IMG/VR virus record: IMGVR_UViG_3300013004_000026
Location: 96,001-160,000 of that record
Strand: one strand, 5' to 3'
DNA length: 64,000 bases
Source: a virus
The notes under the pieces are model-generated. The model saw only the letters and a list, made by a program, of their open reading frames with translations, made no database searches and had not been told where the DNA came from. A program made the translations under genes and the position numbers. Each line of letters starts with the position of its first letter. Position 1 is the first letter of the stretch. Positions 960 to 15,020 of this stretch are shown in pieces.

Positions 960-1767
960 GTATAACTTTCAATATCACGGTGTTAAGATGGTTTTCTAGT
1001 TCTGTAAACAATTTGTGTTTTAGAGTGCTGCAAAAAAGTTCTGCATGAGCGGCTGCTCTTCGTTGAGCTATTCGCTTGTAACTGCTGGAGTCTACCCATT
1101 GTTTTATTTCATCAGCTAATGCTAAATTTCTAGCTTCATAGTTTTCCATCACTTCTAGTGATAATTTATTGACTATGTCTAATACCAATTTGTGCCAGTG
1201 CAAGGGCAGTTCGTCTAACAATGCATCCAACAGAATAACATGATTACCTTTTTTTAACTGTAGTCCAGACAGCATACATTTAGCATGATAATGTTCGCGA
1301 ATGAATCTAAAAAGAGTATCGTTGTCTATCCAACTGTTAGCAGACTCTACAAATTTTTGTACTACCATGGCATGCTTGATCTCTAGAATGTCTAGATCAA
1401 AATGCAAACTCAGTATCGGAATATTTTTCCGCACATCGTTTAGTTCAGGCATCTGGAGCCAAAATTCTAGATCTGGATGTTGTTGTCTAAACTGCAAAGG
1501 CGATACTGGGTTGTTGTTTTTGTTATTAATACAACTGCCATGCAACAGAGCTATTTTTGCATTTATATCAAAATAGCGTTGGTGGTCACTTACTGAATAT
1601 ATTGGTGCCATGCTCTGAACAAATTTTGACAAAAACTGTTGATGCTTGTAACACTTCTCAATCGGAATATCCTGTGATTCAAAAGTACCAACAGTGCTGC
1701 TATCGTTCAACACATGAACTGCAATACCATTCTGATTCAAAATTTGAGTGCGAACAAAGTCAACCAT
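949..1767 (-). CDS. hypothetical protein
   Basis: 272-aa ORF overlapping both neighbours in operon fashion. Confidence 0.6.
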   Translation of the reverse strand: MVDFVRTQILNQNGIAVHVLNDSSTVGTFESQDIPIEKCYKHQQFLSKFVQSMAPIYSVSDHQRYFDINAKIALLHGSCINNKNNNPVSPLQFRQQHPDLEFWLQMPELNDVRKNIPILSLHFDLDILEIKHAMVVQKFVESANSWIDNDTLFRFIREHYHAKCMLSGLQLKKGNHVILLDALLDELPLHWHKLVLDIVNKLSLEVMENYEARNLALADEIKQWVDSSSYKRIAQRRAAAHAELFCSTLKHKLFTELENHLNTVILKVIHAE

Positions 1768-2473
1768 GCCGTTGCTCCAGACTCATTTCGCGTGTTTTGA
1801 TATCAGTTATACGCTGTTTGAGATCACCAAGATCTCCTTCGGCCCGCAAAATCTTGAAAACCAAGTTTTCAGGACTGAATTCTCCGCCCCGGGCCAGACC
1901 AGCCTTGCGCATGTCGCGTATGCTCTGCCATAGACTGTTTATGGTCATAGCGTCATCATCTTTGAGAGCTTGTGCTATTCTACCTTTGTAGGTTTTGTAC
2001 TTTTGTTCTACGCTGGCATCATCCACCGTGGCCTTGGTCTGCTTGGGTTTTTGAATCCAGCGATCGTTGAGCAAACTGAATATGCCCATGCTATGATGTG
2101 GCTGTTCAACATCCTGTACATAAAGTTCCACATCATACCCGTGAATCTTAAAGTCAAATTGGTCGTTGTACTGGTATTTTTTTGCGTCGAACAGTTCGCG
2201 AAGTTCTGGGTCATGTGCATCTGGTATTACCACAACCAAATGTAGATCAATATCGCTGTTGGGAGTGTAGGTGTAGGCTGCGTTTGATCCACTTACTGTA
2301 ATGTCCACTAGATCAAAATTTTCAACACCAATAAACTGCTGAAAATCTCTAGCAATCTTCAGCAGTTTGTTGCGCACATCAGGCAGCATTTGCCCGTCGC
2401 GCCATAGGGCAGGATTCAGTGATTCATGAAATATCACTGCCTGCGATAGCTTGTCAAATTCTTGTAAACGCAT
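1760..2473 (-). CDS. Pol-beta superfamily nucleotidyltransferase
   Basis: hGS-x10-DhD motif (VSGSNAAYTYTPNSDIDLH) plus a third acidic strand (DVELY); TAAATA box at 2492-2497. Confidence 0.8.
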   Translation of the reverse strand: MRLQEFDKLSQAVIFHESLNPALWRDGQMLPDVRNKLLKIARDFQQFIGVENFDLVDITVSGSNAAYTYTPNSDIDLHLVVVIPDAHDPELRELFDAKKYQYNDQFDFKIHGYDVELYVQDVEQPHHSMGIFSLLNDRWIQKPKQTKATVDDASVEQKYKTYKGRIAQALKDDDAMTINSLWQSIRDMRKAGLARGGEFSPENLVFKILRAEGDLGDLKQRITDIKTREMSLEQRHG

Positions 2474-5432: not shown

Positions 5433-5653
5433 ATTAGATTCTTTGCATTAGCAACATATCTGCGTTCGTAATCAGAGCGTTCTGGATTGTATACACCTGC
5501 AGCCAGTTGATGTTCTAACCAACGCACCTGGATGGCTGCATTGGTACAATCTGGACGCATGGTGCTTAAATCATCTCGCTCCACCAAAGGAGGTGGTACA
5601 GTGGCACAACCACTCAGTGCCACACACCCCAGTATCAACCAGCGCGGTACCAC
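5381..5653 (-). CDS. lipoprotein
   Basis: Lipobox LSGC; D-C-x-N...Q-I/V-x-x-L pattern shared with the 5079-5432 protein. Confidence 0.6.
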   Translation of the reverse strand: MVPRWLILGCVALSGCATVPPPLVERDDLSTMRPDCTNAAIQVRWLEHQLAAGVYNPERSDYERRYVANAKNLIWTIKSTCVQPVSSRRR

Positions 5654-5790
5654 AACATCACTCCGCGCAGAGCTGATTCGGCCTGCTCACGTTTCACACC
5701 AGTTTCCTGGACCACAAAACGCACTGCCCGATCAAAAGACATTTGACGACCAAAGATAGCCGTGTTAGCGGCCTGCTCAATTTGACTCAT
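5635..5790 (-). CDS. small hypothetical protein (51 aa)
   Basis: MSQIEQAANTAIFGRQMSFDRAVRFVVQETG...; SD GGAG; ATGA overlap with the upstream gene. Confidence 0.6.
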   Translation of the reverse strand: MSQIEQAANTAIFGRQMSFDRAVRFVVQETGVKREQAESALRGVMLWYRAG

Positions 5791-5960
5791 GATTCTCCAT
5801 TTAACAAGTTAGAGGTTTTCTCGTGCTTGGGCCGACGAGAGTAAGCCTTTTTGTTTTCTACTCTTTTTGGCTTGAAAGGCGTGCCAACAGCAAACAGTAC
5901 CATGTGGGCACGAGTACGCGGGCGAGGCATTTCAAAACAAATTGGAGTAGTCTTTTTCAT
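5787..5960 (-). CDS. small basic protein, ArfA-like (57 aa; not in ORF track)
   Basis: ...LFAVGTPFKPKRVENKKAYSRRPKH...; has its own sigma70 promoter. Confidence 0.55.
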   Translation of the reverse strand: MKKTTPICFEMPRPRTRAHMVLFAVGTPFKPKRVENKKAYSRRPKHEKTSNLLNGES

Positions 5961-5969
5961 GATGTTTGT

Positions 5970-5998
5970 AGTTTAACGAAATGAGTATTTACTGTCAA
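5970..5998 (-). promoter_or_regulatory. sigma70-type promoter TTGACA-17-TAAACT
   Basis: -10 box ends 9 nt before ATG 5960. Confidence 0.75.
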
Positions 5999-6000
5999 CC

Positions 6001-6174
6001 TTATTTGAATTTGGCACTGAGCAAGCCGCCCAAGAGCACAGCCGCGGCCCAGGTATTAAGAGTGTAAGGAATTAACAGTGCCGGAAACAGAGTATTCAAA
6101 CTCCATACAATCAGCAAAGGACCTGCAGCCAACACCAGCAATATACCAATCACAATACCAATTTTGAATAGCAT
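6001..6174 (-). CDS. small two-TM membrane protein
   Basis: Hydrophobic 57-aa ORF; SD GAGG. Confidence 0.65.
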   Translation of the reverse strand: MLFKIGIVIGILLVLAAGPLLIVWSLNTLFPALLIPYTLNTWAAAVLLGGLLSAKFK

Positions 6175-8438: not shown

Positions 8439-9697
8439 CTCAGTGTGCCAAAACGGCTCCACGCTCCATTGCCCAAACTGATCCAGCCAGCTGGTTGCCC
8501 GGGGCCCGGAGCACTGTTGAACAGTACAGATCCTTTGGTTGCACCATGTGCAGGAGTACCTGCACTGAACCCAATTTGTTGTTGCCCTATGTACAACTCA
8601 TTGATGCTCACGGTACCATCTTTGTTTAGAACCAAATTGTCTTTACGGTTAGCACTGAGTACCACAGTTTGGTCCCTTGGCGTTCCCACCCATGCCACAT
8701 CGCGTTCACGCTTACCAAACCCAATTTCTACTTCTTGATCCCAAACACTGAGTGCATGTCCAGGTTCTAGCGTGTTTATGCCCACTCGTTTGTCGCCAAC
8801 ATACAGTGTTTGGCTCAACAATGCTTCGCCTGTGGTTTGTAAATCGCGTACTAATCCTAATCGTGTGATATTGGTGTCTGTCACACTATAACTAAGTTTT
8901 GATCCATCGATCACAGGATTGCCATTGAGTGTTAATTTGTTGAGATCAATACCATGTTCTTGTATGCGTTCAAACAAGGTGCTGCTGAAACCGTCGAACA
9001 GTTCTGTGTTTAGACTCTGTTTTGTGGCAGCCACGGTGTTTTCTATAATTCGTTGAGCAAATGTGCCAGTCATCGGAACATCGCCTTTGATATGCAGGTC
9101 ACCTTCAATTACTGTTTGACCTTTGACTTCAAGTCCCAGACTGATAATCTTGTTTTCAATCACTACTCCTGCATCCAACAAGGTCATCTGAACCTGTGTG
9201 CTCTTGTCCTCAATACCGTTACTGTTAAAGTTTTGTATTGTGCCACCGCGTATGTTGTTACCACTTACAATTAGGGTTCTGGAGTTGATTGCATCACCAG
9301 GGATGCTGGCGTTGGGAAAAGCAAAGGTAGCTAACTTTTTACTAATTTCTGTGAGCACAATTTCACGCACAGTATGATTAACATCTATTTCATTGTACAG
9401 TTTGTGTTTGACATGCTCTGTGGCCAGGCGTTTGGTTTCTGCTTCAAAGCTGTTGACCACTTGATCTGCAACAGCATCCAATCTTTCTTGAACTCTGGTG
9501 TGATCCACTTCCATGCCGGCAATTAAACCGTCCAGCTTGGTACTGGCCAGCCAGTTCAATTTCTTTTCGTAATCAATGTTATCTAACCGCTGCGTTAATG
9601 CTGCGGTTACTAAATTGTCCACACGAGCATTCAGCCGTGTTTCAATTTGTTTAACTAGATTTTCAACTATACTGTCTACTTGATTGGTTATGTCCAT
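8435..9697 (-). CDS. hypothetical protein (N-terminal coiled coil, C-terminal fibre-like beta repeats)
   Basis: 420-aa ORF; RVGINTLEP fibre-like motif. Confidence 0.6.
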   Translation of the reverse strand: MDITNQVDSIVENLVKQIETRLNARVDNLVTAALTQRLDNIDYEKKLNWLASTKLDGLIAGMEVDHTRVQERLDAVADQVVNSFEAETKRLATEHVKHKLYNEIDVNHTVREIVLTEISKKLATFAFPNASIPGDAINSRTLIVSGNNIRGGTIQNFNSNGIEDKSTQVQMTLLDAGVVIENKIISLGLEVKGQTVIEGDLHIKGDVPMTGTFAQRIIENTVAATKQSLNTELFDGFSSTLFERIQEHGIDLNKLTLNGNPVIDGSKLSYSVTDTNITRLGLVRDLQTTGEALLSQTLYVGDKRVGINTLEPGHALSVWDQEVEIGFGKRERDVAWVGTPRDQTVVLSANRKDNLVLNKDGTVSINELYIGQQQIGFSAGTPAHGATKGSVLFNSAPGPGQPAGWISLGNGAWSRFGTLS

Positions 9698-11093: not shown

Positions 11094-11494
11094 TGGATGT
11101 TGTTGAATTAATTAACAAGTATGGATTTCCCATTGTCATGGCTGTGGGCATGGGTTACATTATCAAATATGTGTGGGAGTGGAGCACCAAAGAAGTCAAG
11201 CCAGTGATTTCTGAAGCAAACACAGTGCTCATAGCCTTGATTGATCGCATACGCATGTTGGACAATGATTTGATACGGTTGAATCAAAAAGTAAATACAG
11301 TACTGCATCTGCGAGGCAAGATGATTGAAAGCGATCGCGTGATGGAAACTGTAAAGGTCGAGCGCGAGGCAGCCAAACAGTTTGACCAAGCTGTGAGATT
11401 AGACGACGGAATTCACAGCAAACCCAAGAGTAAATCTAAAACAGAAACGTCTGACTCGTCAGATGATAAAGAAGCCAGAACAGGAAATCCTTGA
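11093..11494 (+). CDS. small membrane protein, paralog of 10529-10810
   Basis: INKYGFPIVMAVGMGYII TM; LIDRIRMLDNDLIRL vs LDNRVKTMNHDVIRI. Confidence 0.7.
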   Translation: MDVVELINKYGFPIVMAVGMGYIIKYVWEWSTKEVKPVISEANTVLIALIDRIRMLDNDLIRLNQKVNTVLHLRGKMIESDRVMETVKVEREAAKQFDQAVRLDDGIHSKPKSKSKTETSDSSDDKEARTGNP

Positions 11495-11498
11495 TTGC

Positions 11499-12086
11499 AT
11501 GACAATCGTGTACATACACGGTGCATCTGCCACCAGTGAAAGTTTTACTCGCATACGAGAACATCTACCCAAAAGAGACCTGTGCATAGATTATCACAGC
11601 AGCGATGGGTTTGACACCAATCTCAAAAAAATGATTGAATTGTTGGACAATGTTGAAAAAGTGTTTTTTGTTGCCCACAGCTTGGGCGGCATCTATGCTA
11701 TACATCTTGCAGATAAATTCCCCAACAAAGTTTTAGGCGCAGTTACTCTTAGCACACCCTACGGAGGCAGTAGAGAAGCAGACTATGCTAGATACTTTTT
11801 GCCTTTTTCACAGCTGATGCGTGACATAGGAACTATGAGCCGTCCAATGAGTGTTGTAAAAGATCTACGATATCCCAAGAATAAGTGGACCAATGTGGTT
11901 ACCACTCAAGGTGCAAGTCCTTGGATCAAACAAGACAATGACGGTGTTGTTACCATTGAAAGCATGCGAGCAGTTACCGACATGGAACTGATAGAAGTTC
12001 CTCTAAATCATTATGAAGTGGTGATCAGCGATAAAACTATAAACATTATCAAGGATCGCCTGGCAAGAACACCCTTAGGACCGTAA
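11499..12086 (+). CDS. alpha/beta hydrolase
   Basis: YIHG, AHSLGG nucleophile elbow, TPYGG, NDGVV, C-terminal His. Confidence 0.88.
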   Translation: MTIVYIHGASATSESFTRIREHLPKRDLCIDYHSSDGFDTNLKKMIELLDNVEKVFFVAHSLGGIYAIHLADKFPNKVLGAVTLSTPYGGSREADYARYFLPFSQLMRDIGTMSRPMSVVKDLRYPKNKWTNVVTTQGASPWIKQDNDGVVTIESMRAVTDMELIEVPLNHYEVVISDKTINIIKDRLARTPLGP

Positions 12087-12155
12087 CTTAGTTACGAGGG
12101 TGGCCGGCTGCTGGCCTCAGAAAACGATTCGCTACCGTGGACTGTAAAGTGAGCA
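12070..12155. ncRNA. putative structured RNA displaying rRNA-identical (minus) / rRNA-antisense (plus) loops
   Basis: Three stem-loops whose unpaired parts match 23S ACGGTCCTAAGG and GGTAGCGAA and 16S GCCAGCAGCCG; lies between convergent genes. Confidence 0.6.
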
Positions 12156-12935
12156 TTACTGTTCTAGCTCTTTCAATTCACTTATAAACTCTGCTTCTGG
12201 AATGCGTGTGCGAGTATTTTTACTGCCCAGCACCACCACAATTCTATCGCCCAAATCAGTGTCCATGAGCATGACAATGCATCCGCCACTGGTAGTTATC
12301 CAACCAGTCTTGCTTACTATCACTCGCTGAGTTCTACCAACCAAGGGATTGGTTTGAGGAAATAAAAAATACTTTTTCTTTAGTTTGATTTGTACTTTGG
12401 TCTTTTGACTGGCTTCAATCACTGCACCATAAGTTCTGGCCGCACGAACAAGCATGACAAGTTCTCTAGCAGTACTGACATTTCTAGCATCTAGGCCTGT
12501 GGGCTCATATACCACACTGTTGACCATGCCCAGTGTTTTCATCTTGATGTTCATTTCATCAACACAGGCTCTAAGCCCGCCGGGGTAGTGTTCGCACAAG
12601 GTCTGTGCAGCACGGTTGTCACTCTTGACCATGGCCAGTTCAATCAAGGTGCGACGACTCAGAGTTTTTATCTTTCTGGGAATATGACTTTTAGGGGCTC
12701 GAGCCAGGGTAAGCTGTTCCTCCATGCTTTGACCTGCGTCTAACACAGTCATTACTGTGAGTAGTTTTGTGATACTGGCTATGCTGCGAACTTGATCCGT
12801 GTTATCGCTGCGGATTATGTTTCCTTGTGGATCTGACACAAGCCAGCTTTGTGCGGTAAGGTGTCCTTTTGCGACAGTTGACCCATGACCACAAATGGCG
12901 AAAAGTACCAATCCAATAATAATTTTATTGAACAA
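12156..12935 (-). CDS. peptidase S11 D-Ala-D-Ala carboxy/endopeptidase (PBP7-like)
   Basis: SITK (SxxK), SDN (SxN), KTG triad; signal peptide. Confidence 0.92.
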   Translation of the reverse strand: MFNKIIIGLVLFAICGHGSTVAKGHLTAQSWLVSDPQGNIIRSDNTDQVRSIASITKLLTVMTVLDAGQSMEEQLTLARAPKSHIPRKIKTLSRRTLIELAMVKSDNRAAQTLCEHYPGGLRACVDEMNIKMKTLGMVNSVVYEPTGLDARNVSTARELVMLVRAARTYGAVIEASQKTKVQIKLKKKYFLFPQTNPLVGRTQRVIVSKTGWITTSGGCIVMLMDTDLGDRIVVVLGSKNTRTRIPEAEFISELKELEQ

Positions 12936-12956: not shown

Positions 12957-15020
12957 TTATTTAGAAGTGGCACGATATACGCCATCCCAATCCTTGGGCA
13001 GTTTGGCCCGTTTCATTTCTTCACAGCGCAGGATCCAAAGTTCATAGTAGTGATCCATTTGTCCGTCAAACTCGCCTGTGAGTTCTTGGCACAGTTTGAT
13101 AGCTGCATCAAACTTTTGCTGTCTATACAGCACAATCATTTCATCATGAGTTTCTTTGGCCATGATGTACTCGGGCATGCCACCTGCATTGGTAGTCAAC
13201 GGAGTGTATATATTTAACCCAATTGCTTTGCCTTTCACCGCAATGCAATCTAGTTCCAGGCACAAGAAATCATCCTTGACCATTTGATAGGTGTCCGGGC
13301 CAATGATTATGAGCACCCCATAGCCTTTGGTTTGTCCTTCCAGTCGAGCAGCTACAGACACCGGATCGCCCAGCACATCGTATCCCATCTTACCTTCAGA
13401 TCCAATATTGCCTACCAAGATCTTACCGGTGTTGACACCGGCGCCCATGCCCACTGGTGGTTTGCCGATGCTGGCCAGGTGGTTGTTAAACTGTTCTACC
13501 GCTTGGATCATTTCCATAGTAGTCTTGACTGCACGATAGGCATGACGGTCGTCGTTAACTGGTGCACCGTGTATGTGCAAACTGGCGTCGCCGATGAACT
13601 TGATCAAACAGCCATCATTGGCAAACACAGGTCGGCTGATCGCAGTCATGTATTCATTCATGATGGCAGTGAAGCCTTCGACATCTGCACCATACTTTTC
13701 TCCCAGTCCAGTAAAGTTGCGCATGTCTGTCATGATCACTGACAGCACTTTTTCTTCACCGCCCAACTTGATCAGCTCGGGATTCTTTTGCAGTCGTTCA
13801 ACAATCACGGGACTCACATATGACCCAAATTGTTTCTTGATCTGTTGCTTCTGTAAGAACTCACTCACAAACTTAACGCCGTAAGTATGCAAAGCCACGA
13901 GCACAATACCAGCCGTGATTGCTGTCGCGTCTGCCAAGACGAGCCAGTTACTGAAAATATACTGAGTAACAGGAGCCACGGCAACGACCCCAAAAACAGT
14001 TGCACCCAAACCAACATAAGTCCACCTTGATAAAGAAATAATAATTAGTCCCAATAACAGCAATGTCAGAATCTCAGCGCCATCTGCATAGTCCGGACGC
14101 TGAATGGTAACATTGTTAAACATGGTTCCAATCACAGCAGCCTGCGCATCGTTGGGATACACCGCTCCTATGCTGGTGGGCACAGGATTTGAAATACCAG
14201 CTGCGGTAGGACCCACAAGGACTAGTGCGCCTTTAAGGTCTGCAGGCAGTTGTGTAATACTATAAGCGTGTGACTTTTGTGACCAGTCAATCCATATGCG
14301 ACCAAGATTGTCCGTGGCAATTGGACCAAATTTGGGTATGCGCATTTTTTCAACGCCATACTCATTTAACTTTATTTGAAAGGTGGTGTCACCTGCTGCT
14401 ACTCGCAACACTTCCATACCCAAACTTGGGTACAGAATGTCATTGACGCCAAATATCAAAGGCAGTCTTCGATTGACGCCATCTATTTCTGGCAGCGTGT
14501 GAGTACCACCTATGCCTGCCGCAGCATTTTCTATAGCAGGAATGTTAGCAATAATACCTGGATAGTTTACAATGTTTTCGATCCACTCTGGCCCAAGCAC
14601 TGCACTGCCAGGATTGCGAGGTTTGTTTTTTGTTTGATCACCTGGTACATTGGCAATGACCACAGGATATTTTTGCATTACCGCAGCTAGAGCAGCATCC
14701 CCGCCTAGCCTGTCTGTGTCCGGCATGAGCACATTCAGCACCACCAATCCTGCACCACGATTGTAAAGATCTTCTATCATGCGAGCATAGGTGTCTCGCT
14801 TGAATGGCCACTGTCCGTACTTGTCTAAAGCAGTTTCGTCAATGTTGGCCGTAACAATGTTGTTTTGTGTAGGAGCTTTGTCAGCTATTAGAGTATCAAA
14901 GTAGCGTAGTCTTATACTTTCTACAAAGACAGGATCAGCAATTCTTATACTTATAATAAGTGCCAATGTTAAAAGTGCGGTCCACGGATTTGACAGCACA
15001 GCTTTGATTTTGTTTTTCAT
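12957..15020 (-). CDS. CHASE2-domain class III adenylate cyclase
   Basis: IDE..L..YGQWPF.R CHASE2 motif, TM helices, TDMRNFT, IKFIGDA, YDVLGDPVSVAARLE. Confidence 0.93.
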   Translation of the reverse strand: MKNKIKAVLSNPWTALLTLALIISIRIADPVFVESIRLRYFDTLIADKAPTQNNIVTANIDETALDKYGQWPFKRDTYARMIEDLYNRGAGLVVLNVLMPDTDRLGGDAALAAVMQKYPVVIANVPGDQTKNKPRNPGSAVLGPEWIENIVNYPGIIANIPAIENAAAGIGGTHTLPEIDGVNRRLPLIFGVNDILYPSLGMEVLRVAAGDTTFQIKLNEYGVEKMRIPKFGPIATDNLGRIWIDWSQKSHAYSITQLPADLKGALVLVGPTAAGISNPVPTSIGAVYPNDAQAAVIGTMFNNVTIQRPDYADGAEILTLLLLGLIIISLSRWTYVGLGATVFGVVAVAPVTQYIFSNWLVLADATAITAGIVLVALHTYGVKFVSEFLQKQQIKKQFGSYVSPVIVERLQKNPELIKLGGEEKVLSVIMTDMRNFTGLGEKYGADVEGFTAIMNEYMTAISRPVFANDGCLIKFIGDASLHIHGAPVNDDRHAYRAVKTTMEMIQAVEQFNNHLASIGKPPVGMGAGVNTGKILVGNIGSEGKMGYDVLGDPVSVAARLEGQTKGYGVLIIIGPDTYQMVKDDFLCLELDCIAVKGKAIGLNIYTPLTTNAGGMPEYIMAKETHDEMIVLYRQQKFDAAIKLCQELTGEFDGQMDHYYELWILRCEEMKRAKLPKDWDGVYRATSK

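Follow-up and report, generated by a model that had tools for sequence, protein, structure and literature searches.

A new family of single-copy pseudoknotted RNAs in uncultured freshwater jumbo T4-related phages, with fixed loops related to decoding-centre ribosomal RNA

Why should a gap between two phage genes hold exact words from both the 16S and the 23S ribosomal RNA (rRNA)? The question is raised by positions 12070-12155 of the window analysed here, a 64-kb stretch of DNA (bases 96001-160000 of a 168-kb IMG/VR virus contig) that is present in about 19 lake-water metagenome runs. An earlier reading of the letters, the original prediction, had proposed that this element is a small structured RNA built from decoding-centre rRNA sequences, acting either as a decoy read from the minus strand or as an antisense RNA read from the plus strand. 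We find that the element represents a new family of pseudoknotted RNAs that occurs once per genome in uncultured freshwater jumbo T4-related phages, and that its link to the rRNA sequences of the decoding centre and of intersubunit bridge B2a is real and kept across the family.

The minus-strand sequence quoted in the original prediction was identical to that read from 12070-12155. Its E. coli numbering, compared by script with rrsH and rrlH of E. coli K-12, was exact, and all four matches were present: 12 nt to 23S 1919-1930, 9 nt to 23S 1929-1937, 8 nt to 23S 1909-1916 and 11 nt to 16S 517-527, the rRNA sense being that of the window's minus strand. Further exact 8-mers in the same sense correspond to 16S 802-809 and 16S 162-169. 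On the plus strand the element reads as an AAGAAC lead, hairpin P3, hairpin P2 with a G+C stem (3-4 bp in the family), a long hairpin P1 and a tail:

12065-12070, plus strand: 5' lead AAGAAC, conserved; the complement of the GUUCUU block of the family alignments.
12070-12102, plus strand: hairpin P3, with arms CACCCU (12070-12075) and AGGGUG (12097-12102) and, between them, a bulge and an insert hairpin.
12073-12082, plus strand: invariant block CCUUAGGACC, the exact complement of 23S 1921-1930.
12082-12096, plus strand: insert hairpin CGUAAC-UUA-GUUACG, optional and variable; 12089-12096 complement 23S 1909-1916.
12102-12116, plus strand: hairpin P2, GGCC-GGCUGCU-GGCC, with its loop at 12106-12112; 12105-12115 complement 16S 517-527 (the 530 loop).
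12118-12144, plus strand: hairpin P1, with outer stem CAG/CUG, inner stem ACG/CGU and loop AUUCGCUAC at 12127-12135 (helices 3 and 4 of alignment A4, below).
12147-12155, plus strand: 3' tail AAGUGAGCA, conserved; AGC at 12152-12154 can pair with GCU at 12107-12109 in the P2 loop to form a pseudoknot.

In this copy the complementarity around CCUUAGGACC reaches 12 nt (23S 1919-1930), lying partly in the bulge and partly in a P3 arm, and positions 12128-12136 of P1 are complementary to 23S 1929-1937. Taken by itself, the copy is unremarkable. The 168-kb genome holds 47-49 rRNA 12-mers per strand, and within the 86 nt of the element 32 bases lie under rRNA words of at least 9 nt, against a genome maximum of 60, which places it in the top 2% or so. 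The highest 9-mer coverage in the same genome, 60 bases per 86 nt on the minus strand, is found at about 9,540-9,630, beyond the window. Nor did single-sequence folding reveal extra stability over shuffles on either strand (z = -0.25 and -0.39). The case is therefore carried entirely by the relatives of the element.

Relatives were readily found. An exact 24-mer over the part resembling helix 69 (H69) occurred in 42 IMG/VR viral contigs with mostly unrelated flanks, and patterns based on the 5' half and on P2 plus conserved block 4 each gave at least 120 matches. We collected 162 distinct members, a lower bound, of 76-107 nt (median 92). RNAalifold applied to a MAFFT alignment recovered merely 7 pairs, and a column-pair scan of two alignments, A1 and A2, gave nothing informative; in both cases the helices were misaligned. 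We therefore used anchor-based pair counts, which are independent of any model and favour neither strand, and a covariance model, R1, built from nine plus-strand sequences with a hand-annotated structure. In the resulting model-based alignment of the family (A4), 92.3% of cells were paired as compared to 59.0% in shuffles, none of 500 of which reached that value, and to 34-45% in slid controls. The covariation score was 0.699 against 0.180 in shuffles, and 16 of 17 pairs showed changes on both sides. P3 (helix 1) had 95.7% of its cells paired, with changes on both sides in all five pairs, and P2 (helix 2) was 100% paired. The anchor-based counts gave the same picture, with P2 pairs 2 and 3 paired in 99-100% of members (51-55% after permutation) and P1-inner pairs 1 and 2 in 95-97% (45-75% after permutation). 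The contact between the P2 loop and the tail, in rRNA-sense letters, was GCU:AGC in 158 members and GGU:ACC in 3, a compensatory change; in A4 it was 100% paired, with two rows changed on both sides. By covariation, the predicted fold is thus one of three hairpins, P3, P2 and P1, with a 3-bp pseudoknot between the tail and the P2 loop. The three hairpins of the original prediction are confirmed in this way, although folding of a single sequence fails to show them. A possible pairing of the P1 loop with the tail (GAAU with GUUC) was dropped, as the loop variants gave no support for it.

The stems covary and the rRNA-matching loops stay fixed. In rRNA-sense letters, three blocks are invariant: GGUCCUAAGG, corresponding to 23S 1921-1930 and extending to 11-15 nt in single members; GUAGCGAA, corresponding to 23S 1930-1937; and CAGCAGCCG, corresponding to 16S 519-527. 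The last is narrower than the 517-527 match originally described, which is present in the window copy and of which this is the conserved core. The plus-strand block CCUUAGGACC was nearly invariant even in members retrieved without using it as a search pattern. Compared with shuffled motifs, the 10-mer and the 9-mer matches had p values of 0.007 and 0.021, respectively; shuffled controls thus separate the loop words at the level of the family, whereas the density of rRNA words in the single genome is ordinary. The best rRNA alignment fell at 23S 1900-1950 in 100 of 117 members.

Conservation did not extend to the H69-like 8-mer of the original prediction, CGTAACTA, which lies in the optional insert. 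The insert (which holds the predicted CGUAACUA) is variable, and is missing in 42 of the 162 members; RUAAC, in rRNA-sense letters the equivalent of 23S 1910-1914, is kept in 92 of 120 inserts. One member, L079, has an insert, CCGUAA-ACGG-UAACGGUCCUAAGGU, that is a near-full copy of H69 (23S 1908-1931, CCGUAA-CUA-UAACGGUCCUAAGGU), and those of L046, L074 and L076 resemble H69 to much the same degree in sequence and loop size.

Members retrieved without using P1 revealed several types of P1 loop. Type 1, that of the window copy, carries the 23S 1930-1937 word GUAGCGAA. In type 3, GAAUGGCGUUAA, the first 9-10 nt correspond to 23S 1967-1976, which we take to be the other strand of helix 70; its core, GAAUGGCGU, is 23S 1968-1976, and the match reaches 10 nt in L201. 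Block 4 and the type-1 and type-3 P1 loops all map within 23S 1921-1976 on one strand, and the P3 block and the type-1 loop together span 23S 1921-1937 without a gap. From the shuffled-motif figures for the blocks, we roughly estimate the joint chance of the block 4, type-1 and type-3 matches at about 1e-8. At the level of the family, sequence comparison thus places the rRNA complementarity of the fixed loops beyond chance, and the segments matched are universally conserved and lie near the decoding centre and bridge B2a. Several other likenesses did not hold. The match of block 1 to 23S 1099-1105 or 16S 506-513 (7 of 8 positions) was not significant (p = 0.24), the likeness of the P3 stem CACAC to helix 44 of 16S rRNA is coincidental since that region covaries, and the sole rRNA match of the type-4 P1 loop is on the opposite strand and chance-like. 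Flanks that lack conservation, and variant loops that correspond to different segments of 23S rRNA, also led us to set aside a permuted intron-exon arrangement and a captured fragment of rDNA.

Which strand is functional? Gene context and strand were scored in 117 loci. In 96 of these the gene that abuts the element upstream has the direction of its plus strand, and in 91 both neighbours have it. The upstream stop codon is inside the element or at most 16 nt from it in 87, being in most loci at the 5' lead or just inside. Phage transfer RNA (tRNA) genes likewise share the direction of the neighbouring genes, against that of the rRNA-sense strand. The promoter of the next gene follows the element at once, as TTGACA-17-TATACT or as the late-type motif ATAAATAC, outside the conserved element by 10-45 nt, so that no space remains for an opposite-strand promoter. 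The convergent arrangement in the window is atypical of the family. The premise of the original prediction that both strands can be transcribed fits this locus, but not the co-directional arrangement of typical ones. Wobble pairs also distinguish the strands. In rRNA-sense letters, P1-inner pair 3 was A-U in 22, G-C in 12, A-C in 17 and G-U in no members, and P2 pair 4 was G-C in 85, A-U in 45, A-C in 12 and G-U in none. Moreover, P1-outer could be lengthened by allowing A-C in 33 members as compared to 6 for G-U, permuted controls being symmetric. Since an A-C corresponds to a G·U on the complementary strand, the fold under selection appears to be that of the plus strand. Minimum free energy (MFE) did not separate the strands among the 117 members (-24.2 versus -23.9 kcal/mol, p = 0.36). 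We conclude that the functional strand is most likely the window's plus strand, in which case the RNA carries complements of rRNA and not copies of it; of the two roles first proposed, the plus-strand antisense one is favoured by this evidence and the minus-strand decoy disfavoured.

With model R1, 95 of 100 loci had exactly one copy. A single copy was also present in the window's genome and in each of five large contigs, one of them a complete genome of 352,754 bp with terminal repeats. Judged by the similarity of their family-B DNA polymerase gp43, the carriers are jumbo T4-related phages of the 121Q / Atu_ph07 / Phosso kind. The polymerase gene is itself among the neighbours of the element, along with genes for DsbA-like, ferritin-like, desaturase and radical-SAM proteins; the neighbours differ between loci and are not conserved. 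A three-block pattern had one match among 185,579 prokaryote genomes, in NZ_JBBAKG010000001.1, a 183,398-bp contig of a metagenome-assembled genome (MAG) named 'Haliscomenobacter sp.'. Because of its size and its possession of a phage-specific RNA, this contig is probably a jumbo-phage genome binned into a bacterial MAG, and may possibly hint at a host. A BLAST search of GenBank phages with the locus produced four spurious 27-nt matches and no close one.

How might the fixed loops act? We tentatively favour an anti-rRNA kissing-loop RNA, whose loops would pair with host rRNA. The element would be transcribed on the plus strand as the 3' end of whichever gene lies upstream, directly before the next promoter. 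Its exposed loops would be directed at 16S 519-527 (the 530 loop) and at 23S 1920-1931 (the 3' strand of H69 and the following junction), and the P1 loop at the strands of 23S helix 70, that is 1930-1937 or, in variant members, 1967-1976. Pairing would be loop to loop, with rRNA that is nascent or on free subunits. Exposed complementary loops are conserved and the stems around them covary, as expected of such an RNA, and loops of 6-10 nt suit kissing interactions, as in the antisense RNAs ColE1 RNA I and CopA. We favour pairing because the alternative P1 loops address different strands of one rRNA helix, in the manner of guides and unlike a single protein site, and because the P3 block and the type-1 P1 loop form a contiguous target. 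The targets are alike in all bacteria, which would give the phage a hold on the ribosomes of any host and would explain why the loops are invariant across diverse phages. The likeliest consequence would be the sequestering or remodelling of subunits or assembly intermediates. A more elaborate version, on which we are a little more reserved, is that of a guide-like RNA docking by three kissing loops on the rRNA of both subunits (the 530 loop; H69 and helix 70). By docking at the decoding centre and bridge B2a it would then let the phage capture or silence ribosomes or their assembly intermediates, or remodel them, whatever the host.

Several observations weigh against pairing with rRNA. The target segments are largely structured or buried in the mature 70S ribosome, so that only free subunits or assembly intermediates would be open to pairing, and there is no obvious gain for the phage from harming ribosomes. 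In the proposed fold the P2 loop is partly occupied by the 3-bp pseudoknot, and the nucleotide equivalent to G524 of 16S rRNA changes jointly with its compensating internal partner instead of being fixed on the rRNA sequence. No significant rRNA match exists for P1 loops of type 2 (GCACGAC) or type 4. The wobble asymmetry is possibly inflated by the shared ancestry of the members. A consensus scan of 12060-12160 on both strands found no terminator-like site and no recognisable promoter bounding the element, and the only RNA run with the locus gave one strandless 172-nt contig (12146-12314) over the neighbouring gene. Finally, the element was absent from the five cultured relatives examined in the jumbo T4-related group, and is therefore dispensable for phages of the 121Q / Atu_ph07 / Phosso kind.

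The alternative that survives best, which we consider rather unlikely, is a structured element of the 3' untranslated or intergenic region whose invariant loops bind a phage or host protein, the rRNA complementarity being a by-product of its origin or of shared RNA motifs. It could act as a signal in processing, stabilisation, termination or anti-termination, or belong to a phage ribonucleoprotein as its RNA component. The stereotyped position at the upstream stop codon, the sigma70-type or late-type promoter that follows at once and the single copy per genome would all suit such a role. The conservation of the P2 loop is in part explained by the internal tertiary pairing, and the type-2 loops lack an rRNA counterpart. 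On the other hand, one protein site would not tolerate three or four P1 loop sequences, nor would it account for type-1 and type-3 loops that map to the two strands of 23S helix 70 beside the P3 target, or for the estimated joint chance of the matches. The unconserved neighbours argue against a gene-specific role in cis. As to termination, the scan of 12060-12160 found no canonical terminator, and the plus-strand RNA ends in AAGUGAGCA with no U tract directly after a stem, which does not fit an intrinsic terminator defined as a G+C hairpin followed by a U run.

An rRNA mimic read from the minus strand is, in our view, improbable. It would display the 530 loop with its pseudoknot, H69 and the strands of helix 70, and absorb a toxin, nuclease, modifying enzyme or factor with specificity for these parts of rRNA. 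The rRNA-sense strand does reproduce the fold as well, with H69-like hairpins of the same stem and a 9-10-nt loop and with the 3-bp pseudoknot in the register of what we take to be the 16S pairs G506:C525 and C507:G524. A U-rich tail follows P3 on that strand, some members have an extra GC hairpin there, and the window copy is preceded, at a distance of one base, by the end of a minus-strand gene. A hairpin or pseudoknot has the same fold in its complement, however, and structural likeness picks no strand. The rRNA-sense strand is antisense to both neighbours in the 91 co-directional loci, and to the phage tRNA genes; no promoter was seen upstream on it, the space being occupied by the opposite-strand promoter of the neighbour; and its helices contain A·C mismatches at positions that are G·U on the opposite strand (17 versus 0, 12 versus 0 and 32 versus 5). 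Both gene orientation and G·U placement thus speak, indirectly, against the rRNA-sense strand being the functional RNA.

A DNA-level element (a recombination joint, a homing-endonuclease-type site, an origin or a site read as a DNA hairpin) is very improbable: the stems are almost purely Watson-Crick, the MFE is equal on both strands, the single copy lies in variable regions with neighbours that differ between phages, upstream genes often borrow their stop codon from the element and the region of 23S 1915-1937 is presumably the I-CeuI site, but the compensatory pseudoknot change and the invariant loops amid covarying stems are marks of RNA, the asymmetry between G·U and A·C is something that duplex or cruciform DNA would not produce, the annotated neighbour clusters include no nuclease or recombinase gene with a consistent place beside the element and no copy was found split by an insertion.

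The element occupies the gap between two convergent open reading frames (ORFs), as originally described:

11463-12086, plus strand: upstream gene in the same direction as the element, for a 207-residue alpha/beta hydrolase; its final codons and stop lie inside the element.
12156-12935, minus strand: convergent gene for a 259-residue peptidase S11 (D-Ala-D-Ala carboxypeptidase), ending one base from the element.

The stop codon of the upstream ORF, UAA, is at 12084-12086, within the insert hairpin. In contigs from two other lake metagenome runs 11764 is joined to 11978 with about 210 differing letters between, a replaced segment inside the hydrolase gene of related phage populations. On the other side, the peptidase S11 gene lies directly downstream of a minus-strand gene (12957-15020) for a 687-residue protein in which a CHASE2 sensor is fused to a class III adenylate/guanylate cyclase, with 42% identity to a protein of Methylophilales phage Melnitz and 34% to one of Pelagibacter phage HTVC008M. 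In related loci (e.g., L063, L101 and L121), genes for 86-residue DsbA-like proteins have near-consensus sigma70 promoters (TTGACA, 17 nt, TATACT) 10-70 nt downstream of the element; these DsbA-like genes have AGGAG ribosome-binding sites. Many other neighbour genes have the late-type ATAAATAC 6-12 nt before their ATG. With sigma70-type and late-type motifs both present, the two T4-style promoter classes can be read in these uncultured jumbo phages. Across loci, a paralogous protein family of about 200-320 residues (cluster 1, e.g., L106:8674-9267) has 55 occurrences flanking the element on one side or the other; it has no Pfam match and a weak match to phrog_10346. A few kb from its copy of the element, the related viral contig L007 carries, at 5651-6042 (-) and 991-1976 (-), a transfer-messenger RNA (tmRNA), scoring 105 bits with Rfam beta_tmRNA and 127 bits with the permuted tmRNA model, and seven tRNA genes.

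If pairing with rRNA is true, the element would be the first known case, in bacteria or their viruses, of a natural RNA directed against rRNA, and a new viral way of acting on ribosomes that is independent of the host since its targets are invariant across bacteria. RNA tools for binding bacterial ribosomes or their precursors could then also take it as a natural model. No RNA of a phage or bacterium is known to us to have conserved loops that complement decoding-centre rRNA from both subunits, and a literature search on the motif, on rRNA mimics in phages, on H69 decoys and on the accessibility of the 530 loop to oligonucleotides found nothing relevant. Even if pairing fails, a large and well-supported new family of structured RNAs stands, specific to uncultured jumbo phages from lakes, which form an abundant group, and its non-chance relationship to rRNA still needs explaining.

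How does the element compare with known systems? In architecture it recalls ColE1 RNA I and CopA of R1, RNAs of about 70-110 nt with three stem-loops, short exposed loops complementary to the target and stems that are free to vary while staying paired. Those RNAs are encoded in cis opposite a single messenger or primer target and their loops evolve fast; in contrast, the element has invariant loops, would address two different host rRNAs and has no functional partner at its own locus to which it would be antisense. The eukaryotic and archaeal U3, box C/D and H/ACA small nucleolar RNAs (snoRNAs) also direct short conserved antisense segments at universally conserved rRNA, with two segments on adjacent targets, as the P3 block and the type-1 P1 loop would have over 23S 1921-1937. 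The element differs from them in architecture and in that it would target the rRNAs of both subunits. Rfam snoRNA models scored 12-14 bits at 12000-12230 as compared to gathering thresholds of 40-41 (E = 3.8 and 4.2), and neither C/D nor H/ACA boxes (RUGAUGA, CUGA; ANA, ACA) occur among the invariant columns of the family. To our knowledge, no snoRNA-type guides that pair with rRNA occur in bacteria or phages.

Among viral elements, the calicivirus termination upstream ribosome-binding site (TURBS) motif 1, domain IIId of the hepatitis C virus (HCV) internal ribosome entry site and the 3' elements of the barley yellow dwarf virus type lie near a stop codon or in an untranslated region and have a loop complementary to conserved rRNA. 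These loops tether ribosomes. Those elements are eukaryotic, and each addresses a single short site in 18S rRNA and acts in cis on a particular ORF downstream of it, whereas the element has three loops, complements of both rRNAs, varying neighbours and a promoter before the next gene. Leaders of ribosomal-protein operons are likewise non-ribosomal RNAs that share exact words and a local fold with an rRNA site. They have the rRNA sense, lie in the 5' untranslated region of the operon and bind the protein concerned; in the element the folded strand is the complement, and there was no ribosomal-protein gene among the main annotated neighbour clusters.

Comparable in genomic setting are the PeSL promoter/stem-loop cassettes of T4-like phages (PMC2839356, PMC4122927), which are also conserved intergenic modules of variable T4-type regions, placed between a gene end and the next promoter, with neighbours that differ. 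In each of six carrier genomes the present element has one copy. PeSLs are many per genome and combine an early promoter with simple stem-loops; the element is a single copy of three covarying hairpins and a pseudoknot, with invariant loops of 8-10 nt and its promoter outside. ARAGORN found no tRNA or tmRNA in the window and none at the element in 60 loci, and a likeness of blocks 1 and 2 to the D-arm and T-arm of a tRNA was dropped for that reason. Searches with Rfam 15 at gathering thresholds on both strands gave no match in the 64-kb window and none at the element in the loci of five relatives, and an E-value search of 12000-12230 returned noise alone (E = 2.5-4.2); the element belongs to no described Rfam family. 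By their defining tests, then, the element lies outside Rfam families, terminators, PeSLs, tRNA-like RNAs and snoRNAs, and represents a previously undescribed family of small folded RNAs.

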